13,190 nucleotides of DNA. It comes from Candidatus Hydrogenedentota bacterium (GTDB lineage: Bacteria; Hydrogenedentota; Hydrogenedentia; Hydrogenedentales; SLHB01). The notes beneath the pieces are model-generated. The model had not been told where the DNA came from and did not search any database. It worked only from the letters and a program-made list of their open reading frames with translations. Location: NCBI GenBank assembly GCA_045863335.1, contig BTVY01000085.1, positions 1-13,190 on the forward strand, in the 5' to 3' direction. Shown here in pieces: positions 4,988 through 13,146 of this stretch. Numbering within the stretch: position 1 is the first letter of the stretch; every line of letters starts with the position of its first letter. The position numbers and the translations under genes were made by a program.

Positions 4988-5147
4988 AACATCTCCCTTG
5001 GTCCCCCTTCAAAGGGTGAATTGTGGTTAACTCCGTCTATTGCTCTTTGCGCCGAGCCACGTTTGGAGGCTGGTCTTCGTTCGTGTTAAACGCAACGCGA
5101 CGCGTTGCGAGCCATTCCCCCTTTGAAGGGGGATCAAGGGGGATGTT
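4988..5147. repeat. REP doublet (REPIN/MITE-like) with 34-bp terminal inverted repeats
   Basis: AACATCTCCCTTGGTCCCCCTTCAAAGGGTGAAT (4988-5021) matches the reverse complement of 5114-5147 at 31/34. Each arm has its own hairpin (CCCCCTTTGAAGGGGG in the right arm). Confidence 0.85.
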
Positions 5148-6792: not shown

Positions 6793-6862
6793 GTGCTAAA
6801 AGGAGCATAGGCGTCTCGCCTGTGACGGGTACACGGGCGGGACGCCCATGCTCCTTTAGCGC
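6793..6862. repeat. Long REP-like palindrome between convergent genes; may act as a bidirectional terminator
   Basis: GCTAAAAGGAGCATAGGCGTCTCGCCTGTG (6795-6824), a 7-nt loop, then CACGGGCGGGACGCCCATGCTCCTTTAGC (6832-6860). The stem is about 29 bp with two G-U pairs, one mismatch and one bulge. Confidence 0.8.
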
Positions 6863-6964
6863 CAACACAATCCGAAGATCCTCAGAGGAAGACCTCGCCC
6901 GCCATGGAAGGCGGGCGCTACAGTTGCCGCACGCGCACTTTCGCCACGAGCCGGCAGCGATGAA

Positions 6965-7503: not shown

Positions 7504-8622
7504 CTACGAGGCCGTGGCGAAGCTGGGCAGCCCTGGTTTCTGGTAGGGCTTCAGGGCCTCGAACCGGTATTCGATCTCGGCGATTTCTTCCTCGCTCAGT
7601 TTCAGTTCGGAAATGATGGGCGACTCGGGGATGGTTCTGCCGGGTCCGTAGTGCCGGGAGACCATGTTCCGGAACACGCCGCGCTTCTTCCAGAGGTACA
7701 ACTGGATGCCGCGCAGGGAATCTCCGGGATGCGTCGTGCTCAGGTTCGTCATCAGGAGGAACTTGCTGTACGCGTCCCTCATGGCGGCGGGGTCCGCTCC
7801 GCTCTTGTGGAGGTCCCAGATCCGGGTGAGGACGTCCGCGTAGATGGCGCGCTCCGTGATCAGGCCTTCCGCGCCGAGGTGCAACTCGTAGAGCCAGCCG
7901 AGTCCGCCCCGGGCGCCGAACACGCGACGGATCGGTGGCCGTGCCGCGAGCAGGGTGCGCATGCGGGAGATGACGGAGCCCGCCTCTTCTTTGACGTAGC
8001 CGAAGTTGGGGAAGTCCCTGGCCAGTTCGATCATCAGCTCCGGCGAAGGGCTGGGGCCCTTGTACGTGACGCCGCCGGTGGTCTGGAGAATCACGGGCCG
8101 CTTCGTGACGGCCGCGAGCGCGTGCCAGTACTGACGCATGTCGTCTTCGGTCGTGCCTGAATCCGGCGGACGCGAGATGATTGCCGCCGGCGCCAACTTC
8201 TCCGCGTGCTCCGCGTAGTCGAGCATCTCGGCGGTGTCCTTGCCCTGAACACCGAGGCAGAGCGCCGTGCGAAGGGTGGCCGCCGCGTGGGCCAATACTT
8301 CCATGCCCCGCCGCTTTTCCTCGGTGGTCAGCAGATCGACGCTGTCCCCCGACTGCGGCCAGATCATGCCCGGACAGCCGCACCAATCCACGTAACGCGC
8401 CTGGTTGGCCAGGGCGTCGAAGTCCACTTCGCCCGATTCGGTAAACGGCGTCGACAGGATCAAAAACGGCCCTTGGACCTTCGGATCTGCATCGCCCGAA
8501 GCGGCAAGCGGGTCCGCGCCCTGGCGGGGTTCCTGCGCACTCGCTCCGAGCGCGACCCCCGCCGCGCCGGCCACAGCCAGCCCGATCATCCGTCTCCTCG
8601 TCATGTGCTTCTCGTCGGTCAT
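7504..8622 (-). CDS. Dihydrodipicolinate synthase/NAL-family class I aldolase-like protein with Tat signal
   Basis: Motifs STPFTESGEVDFDAL, LLTTEEK and FPNFGYVKEE (Schiff-base Lys). The N-terminus TRRRMIGLAVAGAAGVALGASA is a twin-arginine signal. The start is re-called to ATG 8622, with RBS AAGGGG at 8636-8631. Confidence 0.85.
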   Translation of the reverse strand: MTDEKHMTRRRMIGLAVAGAAGVALGASAQEPRQGADPLAASGDADPKVQGPFLILSTPFTESGEVDFDALANQARYVDWCGCPGMIWPQSGDSVDLLTTEEKRRGMEVLAHAAATLRTALCLGVQGKDTAEMLDYAEHAEKLAPAAIISRPPDSGTTEDDMRQYWHALAAVTKRPVILQTTGGVTYKGPSPSPELMIELARDFPNFGYVKEEAGSVISRMRTLLAARPPIRRVFGARGGLGWLYELHLGAEGLITERAIYADVLTRIWDLHKSGADPAAMRDAYSKFLLMTNLSTTHPGDSLRGIQLYLWKKRGVFRNMVSRHYGPGRTIPESPIISELKLSEEEIAEIEYRFEALKPYQKPGLPSFATAS

Positions 8623-8695
8623 TATCGTGTCCCCTTGCGATTCGGGCGTGTTTCGAAATTTGTCCGGCATACGTTGCCCACAGTTTGACCAACTT

Positions 8696-8717
8696 GTGGT
8701 GCAGGCTTCCAGCCTGC
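8696..8717. repeat. Short REP-like unit GTGGT-GCAGGCT-TCC-AGCCTGC
   Basis: Perfect 7-bp hairpin preceded by GTGG, the tetranucleotide-plus-palindrome layout of REP sequences. Only one copy is in the window. Confidence 0.5.
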
Positions 8718-8785
8718 CGCTCGATATATGCATCTCCAGCGAGTGGAGGCAAGAGCCCCGCTGTCGAAACACATCAATGGAGACC

Positions 8786-9037
8786 CCTATGGAGTGCGGG
8801 CGCTTGCGACTGCTTTGGTTCGGTCTGATGAGGATTACCTAAGACAATCAAGGGCTGTTTCTAAAGGCTATGGCGTCGTGTCGGGCAACAAGGGATCGCG
8901 ACGTTGCGTGGCCTGTGAGGCAGGCTTCAAGATGTGCAAGGTCTATCGGTTTTCCCGCATTGCTCCGACGGGGTTAGGGCGGATGGATCAGACTAAACAA
9001 AAGCAGCCACGCTGAGGCGTGGCCGCACTCCAAAAGG
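8786..9037. repeat. REPIN/MITE-like element with GGAGTGCGG-type inverted arms
   Basis: Left arm CCTATGGAGTGCGG...CTGCTTTGGTTCGGTCTGAT (8786-8829) and right arm ATCAGACTAAACAAAAGCAG...CCGCACTCCAAAAGG (8987-9037). The TGGAGTGCGG block is complementary at 10/10 and the inner block at 17/20. Confidence 0.8.
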
Positions 9038-9087
9038 TGCCCGATCATCCGCTGCAACAAGTTGTTCGACAGCGGACACCGCAAGAT

Positions 9088-9264
9088 TCACGATGCCTTC
9101 TGAGCCGTTTTGGGCTTGCGCGGATGCAGTCGCACGGCTCTCTTGCCACTCTGTGCTTGCCGGGCTTTTGCCGCCTCGGCAATCTTCCGGATGTCATCGC
9201 CAGACGCCTCCGACAGCGCCGCGCGAATCTTGTGGATCTCGTCGATAATCGGATCGGTTTCCAT
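9088..9264 (-). CDS. 58-aa small protein of the DPIIxEIxxIR type found downstream of PIN-domain genes (absent from the ORF track)
   Basis: ATG 9264 lies 5 nt after the PIN stop, with AGGGA upstream. Translation: METDPIIDEIHKIRAALSEASGDDIRKIAEAAKARQAQSGKRAVRLHPRKPKTAQKAS; TGA at 9090-9088. Confidence 0.8.
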   Translation of the reverse strand: METDPIIDEIHKIRAALSEASGDDIRKIAEAAKARQAQSGKRAVRLHPRKPKTAQKAS

Positions 9265-9269
9265 TGCAG

Positions 9270-9500
9270 TTATTCCCTTGGCAGCTCAAGCGGCGTACAT
9301 ATGAGCGGCGGCTCGAAACCCTCGTCGCGACATAAATCTTCGATCTTGCCTCGCAGCGTTGCGTTGGCGAGGTGCCTGCAATTCCAGGTCAGCAAGAAGT
9401 CTATGCCGTGGACCGCCGCGATCGCAACGTGAAGCGCATCGATACGAGCGCTCGGGGGTAGACCGCCACCGGAACAAGGCGCTCGGCCAGCAGGACCGAA
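9270..9500 (-). pseudogene. 5'-truncated, frameshifted PIN-domain (VapC-like) toxin gene
   Basis: The C-terminal PIN motifs DALHVAIAAVHGIDFLLTWNCRHLANA...PPLICTPLEL are intact. The preceding helix SVLLAERLV is in a neighbouring frame, implying a 1-nt deletion near 9473. No N-terminal half or RBS is present. Confidence 0.8.
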
Positions 9501-9565
9501 GAACAGTAGCCGCAAGCGCTCAAGACATGTTTCACGACAGGGGCTTGCGGCAGGACGATTGTGAT

Positions 9566-9594
9566 TTGCAATTCAGTGCGATGTGCCGTATCAT
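9566..9594 (+). promoter_or_regulatory. Sigma70-type promoter upstream of the NYN leader
   Basis: TTGCAA (9566-9571), a 17-nt spacer, then TATCAT (9589-9594). The predicted transcription start is near 9601. Confidence 0.75.
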
Positions 9595-9600
9595 TACTTA

Positions 9601-9690
9601 AGAGTTAGCTAAATCAATCCCCTGGCAGTACGCGCCCCCTTGTTATGGCGGGGTGGCCGACCCCAGGGGATTTTTTCGGGCAGAGGGGGC
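9601..9690 (+). ncRNA. Candidate structured leader RNA / attenuator upstream of the NYN nuclease gene
   Basis: A perfect 10-bp stem, AATCCCCTGG (9616-9625)/CCAGGGGATT (9663-9672), runs into T6 (9671-9676). An inner stem pairs GCCCC (9634-9638) with GGGGT (9650-9654). GCCCCCT (9634-9640) is also complementary to the RBS AGGGGGC (9684-9690). Confidence 0.6.
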
Positions 9691-9697
9691 TGTATCC

Positions 9698-10396
9698 ATG
9701 CCAACAGCTATACTCATCGACGGGGAATTCTTTCTTTGGCGGCATCAAGCGGTCTTCGGCAAAGCACCCGCAGCGGACGTTGCCAAGGCTATGCACCGAA
9801 TGTGCTTGGAGCACCTGCGCCAACCCGTGGCAGGGCAACGGAACAAGGACCGAAAGAAAGAGTTTGAACGGCGGGATCTCTACCGCATCTTCTTCTACGA
9901 TTGCCCTCCGTTGACTAAACGGGTTCACAACCCCATCAGCAAGAAGCATATCGATTTCTCCAAAACGCCAACCGCTGAGTGGCGCCTCGCCTTTCACGAC
10001 GAACTGAAAAAACTTCGCAAGGTCGCCCTACGGTTGGGATATCTGAACGAGCGCAGCGGAAGTTGGGTACTCAAACCGACCAAGATGAAAGAACTGCTGG
10101 GTCGAACGATCACGGTCGATGAGTTGACGGACAACGATGTCCGCTACGATGTGATGCAGAAGGGCGTAGACATGCGCCTTGGCCTGGATATCGCCTCGCT
10201 CGCGTTCAAGAGGCAAGTTGACCAGATCATCCTCGTCTCAGGCGATAGCGACTTTGTTCCCGCCGCCAAGCTGGCTCGTCGTGAGGGAATTGACTTCATC
10301 CTTGATCCACTATGGGCCTCCATTCGTCCGGACCTGTTGGAACACGTGGACGGCATGCGCACAATCTGGCCGAAGAAGAGCGAACGTGACGGGTGA
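9698..10396 (+). CDS. NYN domain (LabA/DUF88, PIN-like fold) ribonuclease
   Basis: Motifs ILIDGEFF, YRIFFYDCPP, QKGVDMRLGLDI and LVSGDSDFVPAAKLARREG retain the acidic metal-binding residues. The start is re-called to ATG 9698, after AGAGGGGG. Confidence 0.92.
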   Translation: MPTAILIDGEFFLWRHQAVFGKAPAADVAKAMHRMCLEHLRQPVAGQRNKDRKKEFERRDLYRIFFYDCPPLTKRVHNPISKKHIDFSKTPTAEWRLAFHDELKKLRKVALRLGYLNERSGSWVLKPTKMKELLGRTITVDELTDNDVRYDVMQKGVDMRLGLDIASLAFKRQVDQIILVSGDSDFVPAAKLARREGIDFILDPLWASIRPDLLEHVDGMRTIWPKKSERDG

Positions 10397-10453
10397 TGAA
10401 GGTGCCGAACCCTCGCGAAAAGGGTTGCGACCTTGCGGAAATGTGTGTAATTC

Positions 10454-10493
10454 GTGGCCTGTCCCTTCTTTTCTCTTCTCCGTCCCTTCTTTT
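10454..10493. repeat. Pyrimidine-rich direct repeat (GTCCCTTCTTTT x2) at the GC boundary
   Basis: Exact 12-bp copies at 10461-10472 and 10482-10493. The first is part of GTGGCCTGTCCCTTCTTTT, which loosely resembles GTGGTCTGACTCCGTTTATT at 5210-5229. Confidence 0.55.
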
Positions 10494-10618
10494 GCAAAGT
10501 TTTAACCAGCACGCTACCTCATTGGGTCTAAGGGAGCCTTAACAATATAGTTCTGGACAAAAAGATTCTCACGGAATAAACTACTACCGGAAAGCCCGAC
10601 TTCCGGGAGGGGATGAAC

Positions 10619-12097
10619 ATGAGCAATCACGTCGCAATACTAGTTCTATCGCTATTTGTGAGCGCTGCAGACCCACGACTCAGCGTGCCCGAAAAACCGT
10701 TTACAGCAGAAGTACGTGCCGTTTATCACGCAGATTCGCTAAAGCTTCAAACGCCCGAGGGACAACTTCTAGTTTCGCTGTACGGTGTGAAGGGTGATCC
10801 CTTGGACCTGACAAAGATGAATGAAGCCAAAGAATTCGCTATCGCGGTGACAAAGGACCAAACACTGGAAATCCGGCCCGTCAAGACCATATCCGGCCTA
10901 AGTTATGTCGAGGTAATACTTCCTTCTGGCGAGGTACTCAACAAGCTATTGCTAGAAAAGGGCTTCGTTAAACTCGACACCCTCTCCGCGAGCAAAGACG
11001 AGGTATACACGGAAATTGCATCAAAGGCCGAACAGTTCGGTCCAAATGAAGAAAATGTAGACCCAGATATACCATCAGACGTCGCAAAAAGTGAAAGGCC
11101 CGAGGATTCGCGTCAAGCGCTTGCCAATTTCAAGTTGAAGAAGCAACTCACTGAAATTGCGCAGTTTGAAGCCGAAGTGGAGAAATGGCGGGCATTGCCC
11201 GAAAGTTATAGACGATCAATCGCCGCATCGTATGGTTACACACTCCGATCAGGAACCGCAAAGCTTTCGGAAGAGACAGCCAAGAGACAGCAGAAAGTTG
11301 AAGGAACGGTTCAGAAGCTCGAGGACAACCAATCGAAAATCGTCGCACACCAGGAGGCGATTGCTTCAGTGACCGCATCAGAGCAAGACGCATTGGCTGA
11401 TGTATACGATGATTTTGATCTAAAGTGGGATCAAGGGATGGCTGAAGGGTTTCACAAGAATATTCTTGCCGACGTGGCAACTGGTGACGAATACTCCGCC
11501 GGAATTAATGCTCGCCTCTTAGACAAATACAGCTATAAAGTCATGCTTGACCGATCTCGTGTTGACTCCGAAGCCTCGGCTGTTTCGGCGGCCCATGAGA
11601 ATATGCGAGCGGCACACCGAGGTGAGATAGCAAGTCTTGAATCTCAACACAGCGCAATCATCGGTATGATCAGGCGTGCGGAGGCGGATGCGCAGGCAGC
11701 CGCATCTATCACGGCAAAACATGAGAAGCACTATTCGGATGCACTTCAACGCATAAAAATGCTTGACGAAGCAGTGGGACAGGACTTACAGCCCTCACTG
11801 TTCCCAATTGTTACCGAACAGTTTAGAGGGAACAAGAGTGACAAATTCGCCAAATTCCCCGTTGAGTCAATCATCTGGCGCATCGATTGGTACGTGAAGA
11901 AAGCGGACAACAGCGCATCATTCTCGATTGACCTTTATGAAGCGCAAAACGATAAATTCCTCCAACACGTTATTACAGAACAGCCACCCTACAAATCATT
12001 TCTTATCTGCGAAGAGCCCGGCGAGTATTATTTGAAGGTAAATGCCGATGGCGCCGTGGAGTTCATTATTACTATCGTACAATTTGGGCACTCATAG
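10619..12097 (+). CDS. Exported protein: degenerate thermonuclease (SNase)-like domain, long helical/coiled-coil region and C-terminal beta-rich domain
   Basis: Signal peptide MSNHVAILVLSLFVSA. The segment FTAEVRAVYHADSL..LYGV..EAKEF..V.LPSGEVLNKLLLEKGF follows the SNase pattern. The middle is Ala/Glu/Lys-rich and the tail (WRIDW..FSIDLY..PGEYYLKVNADG) is beta-rich. GGAGG at 10606-10610 favours ATG 10619 over 10613. Confidence 0.7.
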   Translation: MSNHVAILVLSLFVSAADPRLSVPEKPFTAEVRAVYHADSLKLQTPEGQLLVSLYGVKGDPLDLTKMNEAKEFAIAVTKDQTLEIRPVKTISGLSYVEVILPSGEVLNKLLLEKGFVKLDTLSASKDEVYTEIASKAEQFGPNEENVDPDIPSDVAKSERPEDSRQALANFKLKKQLTEIAQFEAEVEKWRALPESYRRSIAASYGYTLRSGTAKLSEETAKRQQKVEGTVQKLEDNQSKIVAHQEAIASVTASEQDALADVYDDFDLKWDQGMAEGFHKNILADVATGDEYSAGINARLLDKYSYKVMLDRSRVDSEASAVSAAHENMRAAHRGEIASLESQHSAIIGMIRRAEADAQAAASITAKHEKHYSDALQRIKMLDEAVGQDLQPSLFPIVTEQFRGNKSDKFAKFPVESIIWRIDWYVKKADNSASFSIDLYEAQNDKFLQHVITEQPPYKSFLICEEPGEYYLKVNADGAVEFIITIVQFGHS

Positions 12098-12141: not shown

Positions 12142-13146
12142 ATGCAGTACATGTGCGAACAGTGCAATACCTCCTTGCAGATTCCCGACGAGTTTGCCGG
12201 TAAGGAGGGCGGGTGCAAGAATTGCGGTGCAAGGTTCGTTGTGCCACCGGCTCCTCAACAAACAAGTGACGTTACTCCTAAGAAGTCTGGCTTCAAAGCT
12301 GTGTTGCTTGGCGTAGCAGCTGTTTGCTTACTAGTGCTTGGGGTGGCGTTTGGCATCCAGCTAGGAAGAAGCGAATCGGACTCCACGCCTAAGGTTCCAA
12401 AAGAAGTGATGACCGCAATACGAGAAAACGCAGAAAGACAGCACCCTGGCAATAAAGAGGAACAAAACACAACTATTGCTGCGCAGATCGAGGCTTATCA
12501 TGCCATCAAGAACTATAGTACAAAAGCGTTTTCAAATGAAGAGTTGAATGATCTCCGATTTAATGCCGAACGAAATTACCCTGGTGACTACGTTCGTCAA
12601 AAAGACGTACTCGATACGGTGAGCAATGCAAGTGCAATGTTGAAGGGACTGGAGGCGGCACACAATATTCAAGTTGATACGCAGTTAAGCACATCGTCCC
12701 CTGACCGGAACACTACAGACTCTTTTCCCAGGCCCGCTTCTCCAACAGCCGTACTGCCGACGCCAAAGTCATCAATTTCCACCGTTCGTTGGCGAAACAA
12801 CGATGAGGAGATGAATAAGTCCTTAATCTCCTCCGAAGATCACGAGGACTACAAAGAAGTACTTTCTAAACTTAAAGCCATCAATTATGTCGAACGCACG
12901 GAATTTGATGGCGTACCGACAGTGTGGGTGACAGATAGCTTCTTAAGTACCAGTCAATATAAACAGGAGAATTTTCTTTTCGCGCTGTATTGCTACTGGA
13001 TGTGCGAACGACCTAGAGAGTTTGGGTACGTAATGATAGATAAGGATAGGGTAACTTGGGATCCGATGTTGGTGAAGCATACGAATGGAAAGTCCGTAGG
13101 GCAGTATCGGTTGCTCAATGAATGGCATGCCCAATGTGTACAATGA
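12142..13146 (+). CDS. Hypothetical single-pass membrane protein with N-terminal Zn-ribbon
   Basis: GGAGG at 12131-12135. CEQC-x16-CKNC zinc ribbon, TM helix AVLLGVAAVCLLVLGVAFGI, two internal helical repeats, a Ser/Thr/Pro linker and a C-terminal globular domain. Confidence 0.8.
   Translation: MQYMCEQCNTSLQIPDEFAGKEGGCKNCGARFVVPPAPQQTSDVTPKKSGFKAVLLGVAAVCLLVLGVAFGIQLGRSESDSTPKVPKEVMTAIRENAERQHPGNKEEQNTTIAAQIEAYHAIKNYSTKAFSNEELNDLRFNAERNYPGDYVRQKDVLDTVSNASAMLKGLEAAHNIQVDTQLSTSSPDRNTTDSFPRPASPTAVLPTPKSSISTVRWRNNDEEMNKSLISSEDHEDYKEVLSKLKAINYVERTEFDGVPTVWVTDSFLSTSQYKQENFLFALYCYWMCERPREFGYVMIDKDRVTWDPMLVKHTNGKSVGQYRLLNEWHAQCVQ

Follow-up and report, generated by a model that had tools for sequence, protein, structure and literature searches.

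The 13,190-nt stretch of DNA analysed here (the window; Candidatus Hydrogenedentota bacterium, contig BTVY01000085.1 of assembly GCA_045863335.1) carries at positions 9566-10396 a compact unit in which a short structured RNA directly precedes a stand-alone gene for an NYN-domain ribonuclease. The same RNA stands in front of homologous NYN genes from many bacterial groups, and we regard this two-part RNA-NYN module as firmly established. Its sequence features further suggest, with a probability that we put at roughly 0.5, that the RNA is the cognate partner of the nuclease, which would throttle its synthesis in cis and, as an abundant terminated RNA, restrain the protein through a sarcin-ricin-type internal loop.

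All parts of the window's unit lie on the forward strand. A promoter scan placed a sigma-70-type promoter at 9566-9594, with a -35 box TTGCAA (9566-9571), a 17-nt spacer and a -10 box TATCAT (9589-9594); it agreed with the consensus at nine of 12 positions, and the same scan returned five sites in 8500-11000 against 0.9 expected. Transcription would start near 9601. The conserved RNA element followed at 9614-9678. Its closing stem, P1, consists of AATCCCCTGG (9616-9625), which is perfectly complementary to CCAGGGGATT (9663-9672), and the 3' arm runs into T6 (9671-9676), giving 9663-9676 the shape of an intrinsic terminator. Between the arms lie the 5' strand of an internal loop, CAGUAC (9626-9631), an inner hairpin, P2 (9632-9657), and the 3' strand of the loop, CGACC (9658-9662). 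A Shine-Dalgarno (SD)-like word, GAGGGGG (9683-9689), was found 8 nt before the ATG of the NYN gene (9698-10396; 232 amino acids), and no second open reading frame (ORF) in the ORF list could be assigned to the unit. An earlier note on this DNA had described the promoter, the perfect 10-bp stem ending in T6, the ribosome-binding site, an NYN gene with intact acidic motifs and the lack of a protein antitoxin, and each of these was borne out. The 65-nt element was predicted to fold at -32.8 kcal/mol (z = -3.70, equalled by none of 200 shuffles), while the folding of the whole 105-nt leader was unexceptional (z = -0.54). With its GC-rich stem, its U-run, its place upstream of the gene and no promoter between, the hairpin has the shape of an intrinsic terminator or attenuator; it went unlisted in the terminator scan because that scan accepts only loops of 3-8 nt.

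The window element is more than a chance hairpin, since homologous loci retain it and show compensatory changes. The comparison covered 80 genome loci encoding relatives 47-67% identical to the window NYN, drawn from Planctomycetota, Verrucomicrobiota, Acidobacteriota, Beta- and Gammaproteobacteria, Bacteroidota, Clostridia, Spirochaetes, Elusimicrobia and Synergistetes. The first hint came from a metagenomic homologue, P0113, whose annotated 48-residue N-terminal extension resembles an in-frame translation of the window hairpin; this extension is an annotation artefact, the called ORF having been extended across the RNA element. By eye, the same element could be recognised just before the start codon in almost all 80 loci. 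The seed alignment comprised 49 sequences, the other 31 rows being left out for wrong hairpin-finder coordinates and not for absence of the motif, and covariation was tested on a 13-pair structure made up of eight P1 pairs and two short inner helices (helices 2 and 3, in P2). In the seed alignment 89.3% of the cells were paired, compared with 73.2 ± 0.9% after shuffling, and none of 500 shuffles reached the observed value. Changes on both sides of a pair occurred in 128 cells against 38.3 in the shuffled alignments, and all 13 modelled pairs, including all eight in P1, showed a double change. Sliding the partners by 1-3 columns lowered pairing to 61% or less. Helices 2 and 3 were 84.7% and 85.0% paired on the seed, with double changes in all five of their pairs, and 83.5% and 83.1% paired in the model-fitted alignment, which as a whole gave 89.1% paired cells against 75.4% and 195 double-change cells against 43.

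A covariance model, R1, was then searched against the window and 82 loci (511 kb, both strands). It returned 81 matches at E ≤ 0.0023, namely the window (63.9 bits, E 1.8e-16, as a seed row), 79 of the 80 genome loci and the phage phiE202; the 49 seed rows match by construction, and 32 matches are independent. Every match lay on the strand of the gene and 80 lay directly upstream of an NYN start, the exception being locus L057, which is split by an insertion sequence (IS). Each locus held a single copy, no further one was found in the 511 kb, and the three remaining rows (E 0.02-0.6) were short terminator-like fragments. The conserved, covarying structure upstream of homologues that the earlier note had proposed to look for was therefore present. 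It could be argued that the hairpin is an ordinary terminator, or a chance hairpin, ending an upstream transcript, since it has the shape of a terminator and small forward-strand ORFs lie upstream of it in the window. However, those ORFs belong to no family, the only homology upstream being a minus-strand vapC remnant, and the same element, with its conserved loop and covarying stems, recurs in the 79 loci behind unrelated upstream genes. The covariation and the linkage of R1 to NYN refute this explanation, to which we assign practically no probability.

Wobble G.U cells (93) greatly outnumbered A.C cells (26), and we conclude that the fold is selected on the sense-strand RNA and not on the DNA. 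An integron attC site or IS end was rejected on this ratio and on the strand-specific, gene-linked occurrence of the element. Locus L078, the one missed by R1, had a different hairpin with a U-run, and in the locus of the E. coli phage ev099 a hairpin with T7 stood 17 nt before the ATG, with no clear loop motif. Plasmid copies from Xanthomonas (32.5 bits), Thermus (32.3 bits) and Aeromonas (23.5 bits) matched R1 in place, whereas one Campylobacter and one Pseudomonas plasmid gave only chance-level R1 matches and a second Campylobacter plasmid gave none. On a Campylobacter jejuni plasmid (L086, ~2380-2480) an apparent degenerate loop motif was seen upstream of NYN, followed by a separate hairpin with a U-rich tail; the R1 match there was at chance level (E 0.97).

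The protein partner can be placed among the NYN-domain proteins by its profile, its conserved acidic residues, which are predicted to bind metal, and a PIN-like fold in its model. The window ORF matched Pfam NYN (PF01936) at 44 bits (cut-off 24.2; E 4.2e-11) and the phage family phrog_5783 at E 1.3e-87, while NCBIfam gave only weak partial NYN matches. Residues D8, D68, D158, D183 and D185 were invariant in an 18-member alignment, within motifs such as GDSDF. An AlphaFold (AF2) model (predicted local distance difference test, pLDDT, 83.5; predicted template-modelling score, pTM, 0.78) had as its nearest PDB folds in Foldseek VPA0982 (2qip) and the NYN domain of MARF1 (5yaa, 6fdl), at E 2.8e-6 to 3.4e-4 and template-modelling scores by target of 0.63-0.65; the family profile had no match among PDB sequences. 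The core fold and acidic pocket are common to these solved RNases and to the window's NYN, and the Asp residues of MARF1 are described in a passage of the literature. At ~15% identity, the window's family differs from them in being ~80 residues longer, since the solved cores of 2qip and MARF1 comprise only 150-160 amino acids. A word-index protein search returned at least 8000 relatives, the best at 61-69% identity, and in an exhaustive scan of 50%-identity representatives the clusters numbered 210 at E ≤ 1e-30, rising to 1067 at E ≤ 1e-10 and to 1906 at E ≤ 1e-3. Most members are single-domain proteins of 220-250 amino acids, currently annotated only as "NYN domain-containing".

The RNA element kept one order of parts, with P1 (8-10 bp), a 5' loop strand that is usually C-AGUA-M, P2, a 3' loop strand that is usually C-GA-N-C, the P1 3' arm and the U-run. 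P2 was variable in sequence, with a conserved AU in its loop. Among the 81 copies, AGUA was found in 50 and GUA in 73, GA in 71 and its A in 80, and 48 copies, including that of the window, had both AGUA and GA; a Bacteroidota variant of the loop reads AACGUA. The consensus of the sarcin-ricin (bulged-G) module is AGUA opposite GAN, and by its loop words the conserved internal loop appears to be of this type. A JAR3D survey (2026) likewise lists loop 1 of the related Rfam family RF03535, discussed below, as a sarcin-ricin match with 100% acceptance and a score of 95.63 (PMC13085918), and the same source describes the module as recurrent in many unrelated RNAs. A kink-turn reading of the loop was dropped by eye because the GA words are out of k-turn register.

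The ribosomal sarcin-ricin loop itself, at positions 2654-2659 and 2664-2667 of E. coli 23S rRNA, has the same words as the window's AGUACG and GACC, and the 14-nt loop word was found once in rrlH (L083, 2713-2726). In the window RNA, however, a helix replaces the GAGA tetraloop, and only the bulged-G module is common to the two. Homology of the element to 23S rRNA was rejected: R1 had no match in rrlH, and the resemblance is therefore local and confined to the loop module. One could still envisage a new class of abortive-infection or addiction system whose RNA antitoxin acts by target mimicry: the RNA would imitate the ribosomal sarcin-ricin loop, or another S-turn RNA, as a decoy that cannot be cleaved, and NYN, once free, would kill by cutting the 23S site; this we consider improbable. 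A further possibility is a riboswitch-like sensor, with a loop that would recognise not NYN but a small molecule or some factor of the host or a phage and thereby tune termination, and with it the expression of NYN. A compact conserved loop between two helices, with a terminator built into the closing stem, would suit such a device, and the shape is known from some small riboswitch classes. Nevertheless, the loop corresponds to a recurrent module of a structural or protein-binding kind and not to a ligand pocket, the long, GC-rich P1 would fold with no ligand present, and distant homologues that retain the hairpin do not keep the loop. No conserved anti-terminator pairing was noticed in the loci, where it was not searched for systematically, and no Rfam riboswitch matched. 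Sensing of this kind thus seems highly improbable.

The arrangement of the loci points to a unit with its own promoter in which the RNA would be transcribed first and NYN would depend on read-through. At least six T within 9 nt after P1 were kept in 74 of the 81 copies. The distance from the end of P1 to the start codon was 5-63 nt (median 23.5; 80 loci, L057 excluded), and this gap leaves no room for a separate promoter in most loci. The 62 nt upstream of P1 contained sigma-70-like sites (at least nine of 12 matches) in 36 of 79 loci, compared with three of 76 control windows, and the Bacteroidota box TAnnTTTG occurred in 13 of 79 and one of 76, respectively. In L001, L005, L007 and L009 the U-run abuts the start codon, and there is no SD-like word other than an AAGG within the 3' arm of P1. 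An additional 5' hairpin (P0) was rejected as a general part of the element (mean z -0.57, controls -0.19, p = 0.067) and does not occur in the window. In loci from Clostridia and Verrucomicrobia (for example L061, L067, L077, L040, L076, L006 and L010), a small hairpin is nonetheless found between the -10 box and P1, ~10-35 nt before the latter; as the palindrome is kept although its sequence differs between loci, it probably forms a 5' stem of the RNA. In L057 (556-3001) two DDE transposase genes lie between the RNA element (556-620) and the NYN start (3001). The IS has perfect 18-nt inverted ends and a 9-bp duplication, which shows that it landed exactly between the SD and the ATG and uncoupled the gene from its promoter; this single anecdote is consistent with a cost of NYN expression.

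On the reading that we favour, the dedicated promoter would give an RNA of ~60-75 nt and, the closing stem and U-run being an intrinsic terminator, most transcripts should stop at ~9676 and accumulate as a small RNA. As the gene starts behind this stem and U-run, NYN would be translated only from the minority of transcripts that read through, and in the relatives whose only SD is sequestered in the stem the hairpin should also block translation. The sarcin-ricin-type loop would serve as the docking site for the cognate NYN, and RNA in excess would restrain the nuclease as an antitoxin-like inhibitor, through feedback on read-through, or both. If the supply of RNA collapsed or the RNA were titrated, as when a phage infects the cell or the element is lost, the nuclease would be released to cleave RNA. 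Such a logic of RNA in excess is that of toxin-antitoxin (TA) systems of type III, and it would fit mobile and defence settings. Termination in vivo in the window's organism, binding between RNA and protein, toxicity of NYN and a role of the module in defence are inferences within this reading.

The distribution of the module was examined next. No conserved protein partner was found among 592 clustered ORFs from the loci, the only recurrent neighbour clusters being an integrase (13 loci) and a repressor-like protein (eight loci). We scanned 115 of the 124 immediate neighbours, the other nine comprising a duplicate locus, ORFs overlapping NYN and phage loci. Ten of the 115 were tyrosine integrases, and others included restriction-modification methylase and specificity subunits, Fic, Schlafen/AlbA_2, transposases, a plasmid replicase, an antirepressor and Cro/CI-type regulators. 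Several Firmicute loci were ordered NYN, integrase, tRNA or tmRNA (transfer-messenger RNA), and in L050, L067, L068 and L076 the module lay at the margin of an integrated element, next to genes for a tyrosine integrase and for a tRNA or tmRNA; L067 also carries a skipping-rope RNA (RF02924) at 1801-1879. In L017 (12-5037) the module separates the genes for components E1 and E2 of 2-oxoglutarate dehydrogenase, and is therefore inserted inside a housekeeping operon. In phage ev099 the NYN gene is found between a cI-like repressor and N, the slot of rexAB in lambda, and in phiE202 between a toxin-antitoxin pair and the integrase. Phage records with the NYN gene numbered 65, of which 48 were Stx2a-converting phages, and plasmid records 165 (134 from Campylobacter; 129 conjugative). 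The ev099-type module (query L082, 3880-4850) was present in 275 of 5426 complete E. coli genomes and at full length in 74; many O157:H7-type genomes retain only its first ~457-464 nt, in some cases annotated as a PIN domain protein. We read the module as a self-contained, horizontally mobile unit of two genes, for an RNA and for a protein, that is found in mobile and defence settings.

Evidence of a transcript is indirect and comes from a related Rfam family. The Firmicute copy in locus L052 matched RF03535 (TEG147) weakly but end to end, at 38.3 bits (E ~1e-6; gathering score 56.1), and the model-to-sequence alignment showed a 9-bp closing stem, an AGUA/GAA internal loop, an inner hairpin and a U-run in common, while R1 unites L052 and the window in one RNA family. 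No copy reached the gathering score in 20 loci (19 of Firmicute type and the Elusimicrobiales locus L038), a scan that gave no TEG147 row; Rfam searches of the whole window and of the element gave chance-level rows only, and a Bacteroidota copy gave nothing. The comparison with Rfam that the earlier note had called for gave a weak match for L052 and none for the window. Teg147 is a 60-nt RNA (386294-386353, forward strand) that PMC5826253 includes among ~50 "bona fide" small RNAs (sRNAs) of S. aureus HG003, a class defined in that text as likely trans-acting and not antisense to a gene, and PMC3053349 places it on a genomic island. RF03535 is named for Staphylococcus and its link to the module is drawn at the RNA level, from sequence similarity; the excerpts of its descriptions give neither a function nor a connection with NYN. 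A literature search, with supplements outside its scope, returned no paper linking this RNA to NYN or describing an RNA-antitoxin with an NYN/PIN-fold toxin, in agreement with the earlier note, which knew of none; an unnamed earlier description may exist. The main texts of Weinberg 2010 and 2017 contain no NYN, DUF88 or LabA term. The RNA is thus partly known as a Staphylococcus-only Rfam entry, whereas its pairing with NYN appears undescribed in the literature searched.

Several observations weigh against a cognate RNA that restrains its nuclease. The element is always directly upstream of the gene, on the same strand, and in 511 kb never apart from it except in the IS-split L057; Rfam types the RF03535 family as Cis-reg, and the window had no match to that family even at E ≤ 10. 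A hairpin and U-run without a clear sarcin-ricin loop are found in ev099, some Campylobacter plasmids, a Thermus plasmid and L078, and no tandem repeats or direct-repeat family were found in 9400-9800. On the protein side, PADLOC gave the window NYN only weak partial NYN and HEC-09 matches (E 1.7e-5 and 1.7e-3 over ~40 residues), and HEC-09, a defence candidate from a different NYN family with a different N-terminal domain and only a weak match to the window's NYN, gave no defence in tests according to excerpts of its description. Many loci, moreover, lie among plain housekeeping genes. Excerpts of the published descriptions of HEC-09 and of the solved NYN RNases mention no RNA partner.

Some of these points would suit a purely cis-acting autoregulatory leader, that is, an attenuator in the 5' untranslated region (UTR) of a nuclease that binds or cleaves its own leader, the short RNA being a by-product and the role of NYN lying elsewhere, in the cell or in a mobile element. 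An RNA that is always in cis and never alone is equally consistent with such a leader, and so are the SD within P1 in some loci and the Cis-reg typing of the TEG147 family. Conserved feedback leaders are well established for RNase genes (the rne 5' UTR, Regnase-1). On the other hand, a terminator this strong and conserved should yield short RNA in large excess, a waste if feedback were all that it served, and toxin or defence modules typically show just such a sporadic distribution, on mobile elements and in defence hotspots. The S. aureus relative, moreover, is classed as a likely trans-acting sRNA and not as a UTR (PMC5826253). The leader is the main rival of the favoured reading; we consider it unlikely, though it has to be taken seriously. 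The strict co-inheritance of RNA and protein across phyla would also be expected of a positive RNA cofactor, a scaffold, guide or activator that NYN needs to reach its targets in a ribonucleoprotein effector, and the inner hairpin and its own loop vary in sequence and could in principle give specificity. The variation in P2, however, is compensatory and stem-like, unlike that of a free guide segment, there was no sign of target-derived sequence, and placing the gene behind a terminator keeps the protein scarce relative to the RNA, which is the logic of an inhibitor. A cofactor of this kind is therefore quite improbable.

Among known systems the module can be compared most directly with type III TA systems (ToxIN, CptIN, TenpIN), in which a terminator likewise separates the RNA from the toxin gene. 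Both have the order promoter, non-coding RNA and endoribonuclease gene on one strand, without a protein antitoxin (for type III properties see PMC8860590 and PMC13682666). Both also occur on phages and plasmids, and in both the read-through logic would put the RNA in excess of the protein. In contrast, the type III antitoxin is a tandem-repeat array cut into units by the toxin and the module RNA a single 50-60-nt hairpin with an internal loop, and type III toxins belong to the ToxN/AbiQ, CptN and TenpN families, whereas the module protein is NYN/PIN-like and has NYN as its only Pfam family. The type III layout proposed in the earlier note held across the loci in its order of parts, without the tandem repeats and with a fold other than that of ToxN. 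With no repeats and a different toxin fold the module is outside type III TA as currently defined, although a type III-like antitoxin is plausible by analogy. AbiF/AbiD1-type abortive infection (Abi) genes, as described in bioRxiv 10.1101/2025.04.15.648962, are likewise single effector genes on mobile elements governed by an adjacent RNA; they encode a different protein family from NYN.

The surroundings of the unit in the window showed the following features. On the minus strand, 9273-9476 holds the 3' remnant of a VapC/PIN toxin gene, comprising the last 68 of ~158 residues, with 90% identity to P0271; codons 1-90 and the antitoxin gene are gone, and the NYN promoter starts 90 nt beyond the break. 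This remnant was identified by protein search only, Pfam and NCBIfam giving no match for the minus-strand frames upstream of the NYN unit. Just downstream of it on the same strand, 9088-9264 is a small ORF of 58 amino acids from its ATG (65 codons stop-to-stop) with no family match. Downstream of NYN, 10613-12097 and 12142-13146 (both forward strand) are genes of 494 and 334 amino acids with a G+C content of ~0.48 against ~0.60. Neither had a family in Pfam, NCBIfam, PADLOC or PHROGs, the ESM Atlas gave only a weak SNase-type nuclease structural row for the 494-residue protein, and neither gene is kept beside NYN in other loci. No tRNA or tmRNA was found in the window. A lone hairpin at 6885-6921 (minus strand), between GFO/IDH/MocA and DUF2200 genes, has a sub-threshold likeness to direct-repeat families of CRISPR (30.1 bits, where the gathering score is 45), with no array nearby, and is probably a terminator-type hairpin. 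Two long intergenic inverted repeats lie at 4988-5147, with 34-nt arms 91% complementary and 92 nt apart, and at 6799-6857, with 26-nt arms 7 nt apart.

Even if the RNA were only a cis-acting leader, it would still count as a new RNA motif, well supported, shared across phyla and tied to a defined protein context. If instead it restrains the nuclease, the module would be a fourth, structurally unrelated family of RNA-antitoxin (type III-like) systems, the first with a PIN/NYN-fold toxin and the first with a single-hairpin antitoxin that doubles as terminator. This would also give a role to the orphan S. aureus sRNA Teg147 and to the widespread NYN family of Stx-converting and other prophages and of Campylobacter conjugative plasmids. 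Were the decoy of the ribosomal sarcin-ricin loop to prove true, at least 200 clusters at 50% identity in some ten phyla, phages and conjugative plasmids would represent an unrecognised ribosome-targeting defence. The unit is smaller than 850 bp and self-contained and has natural versions in E. coli phages, which makes the hypothesis directly testable.

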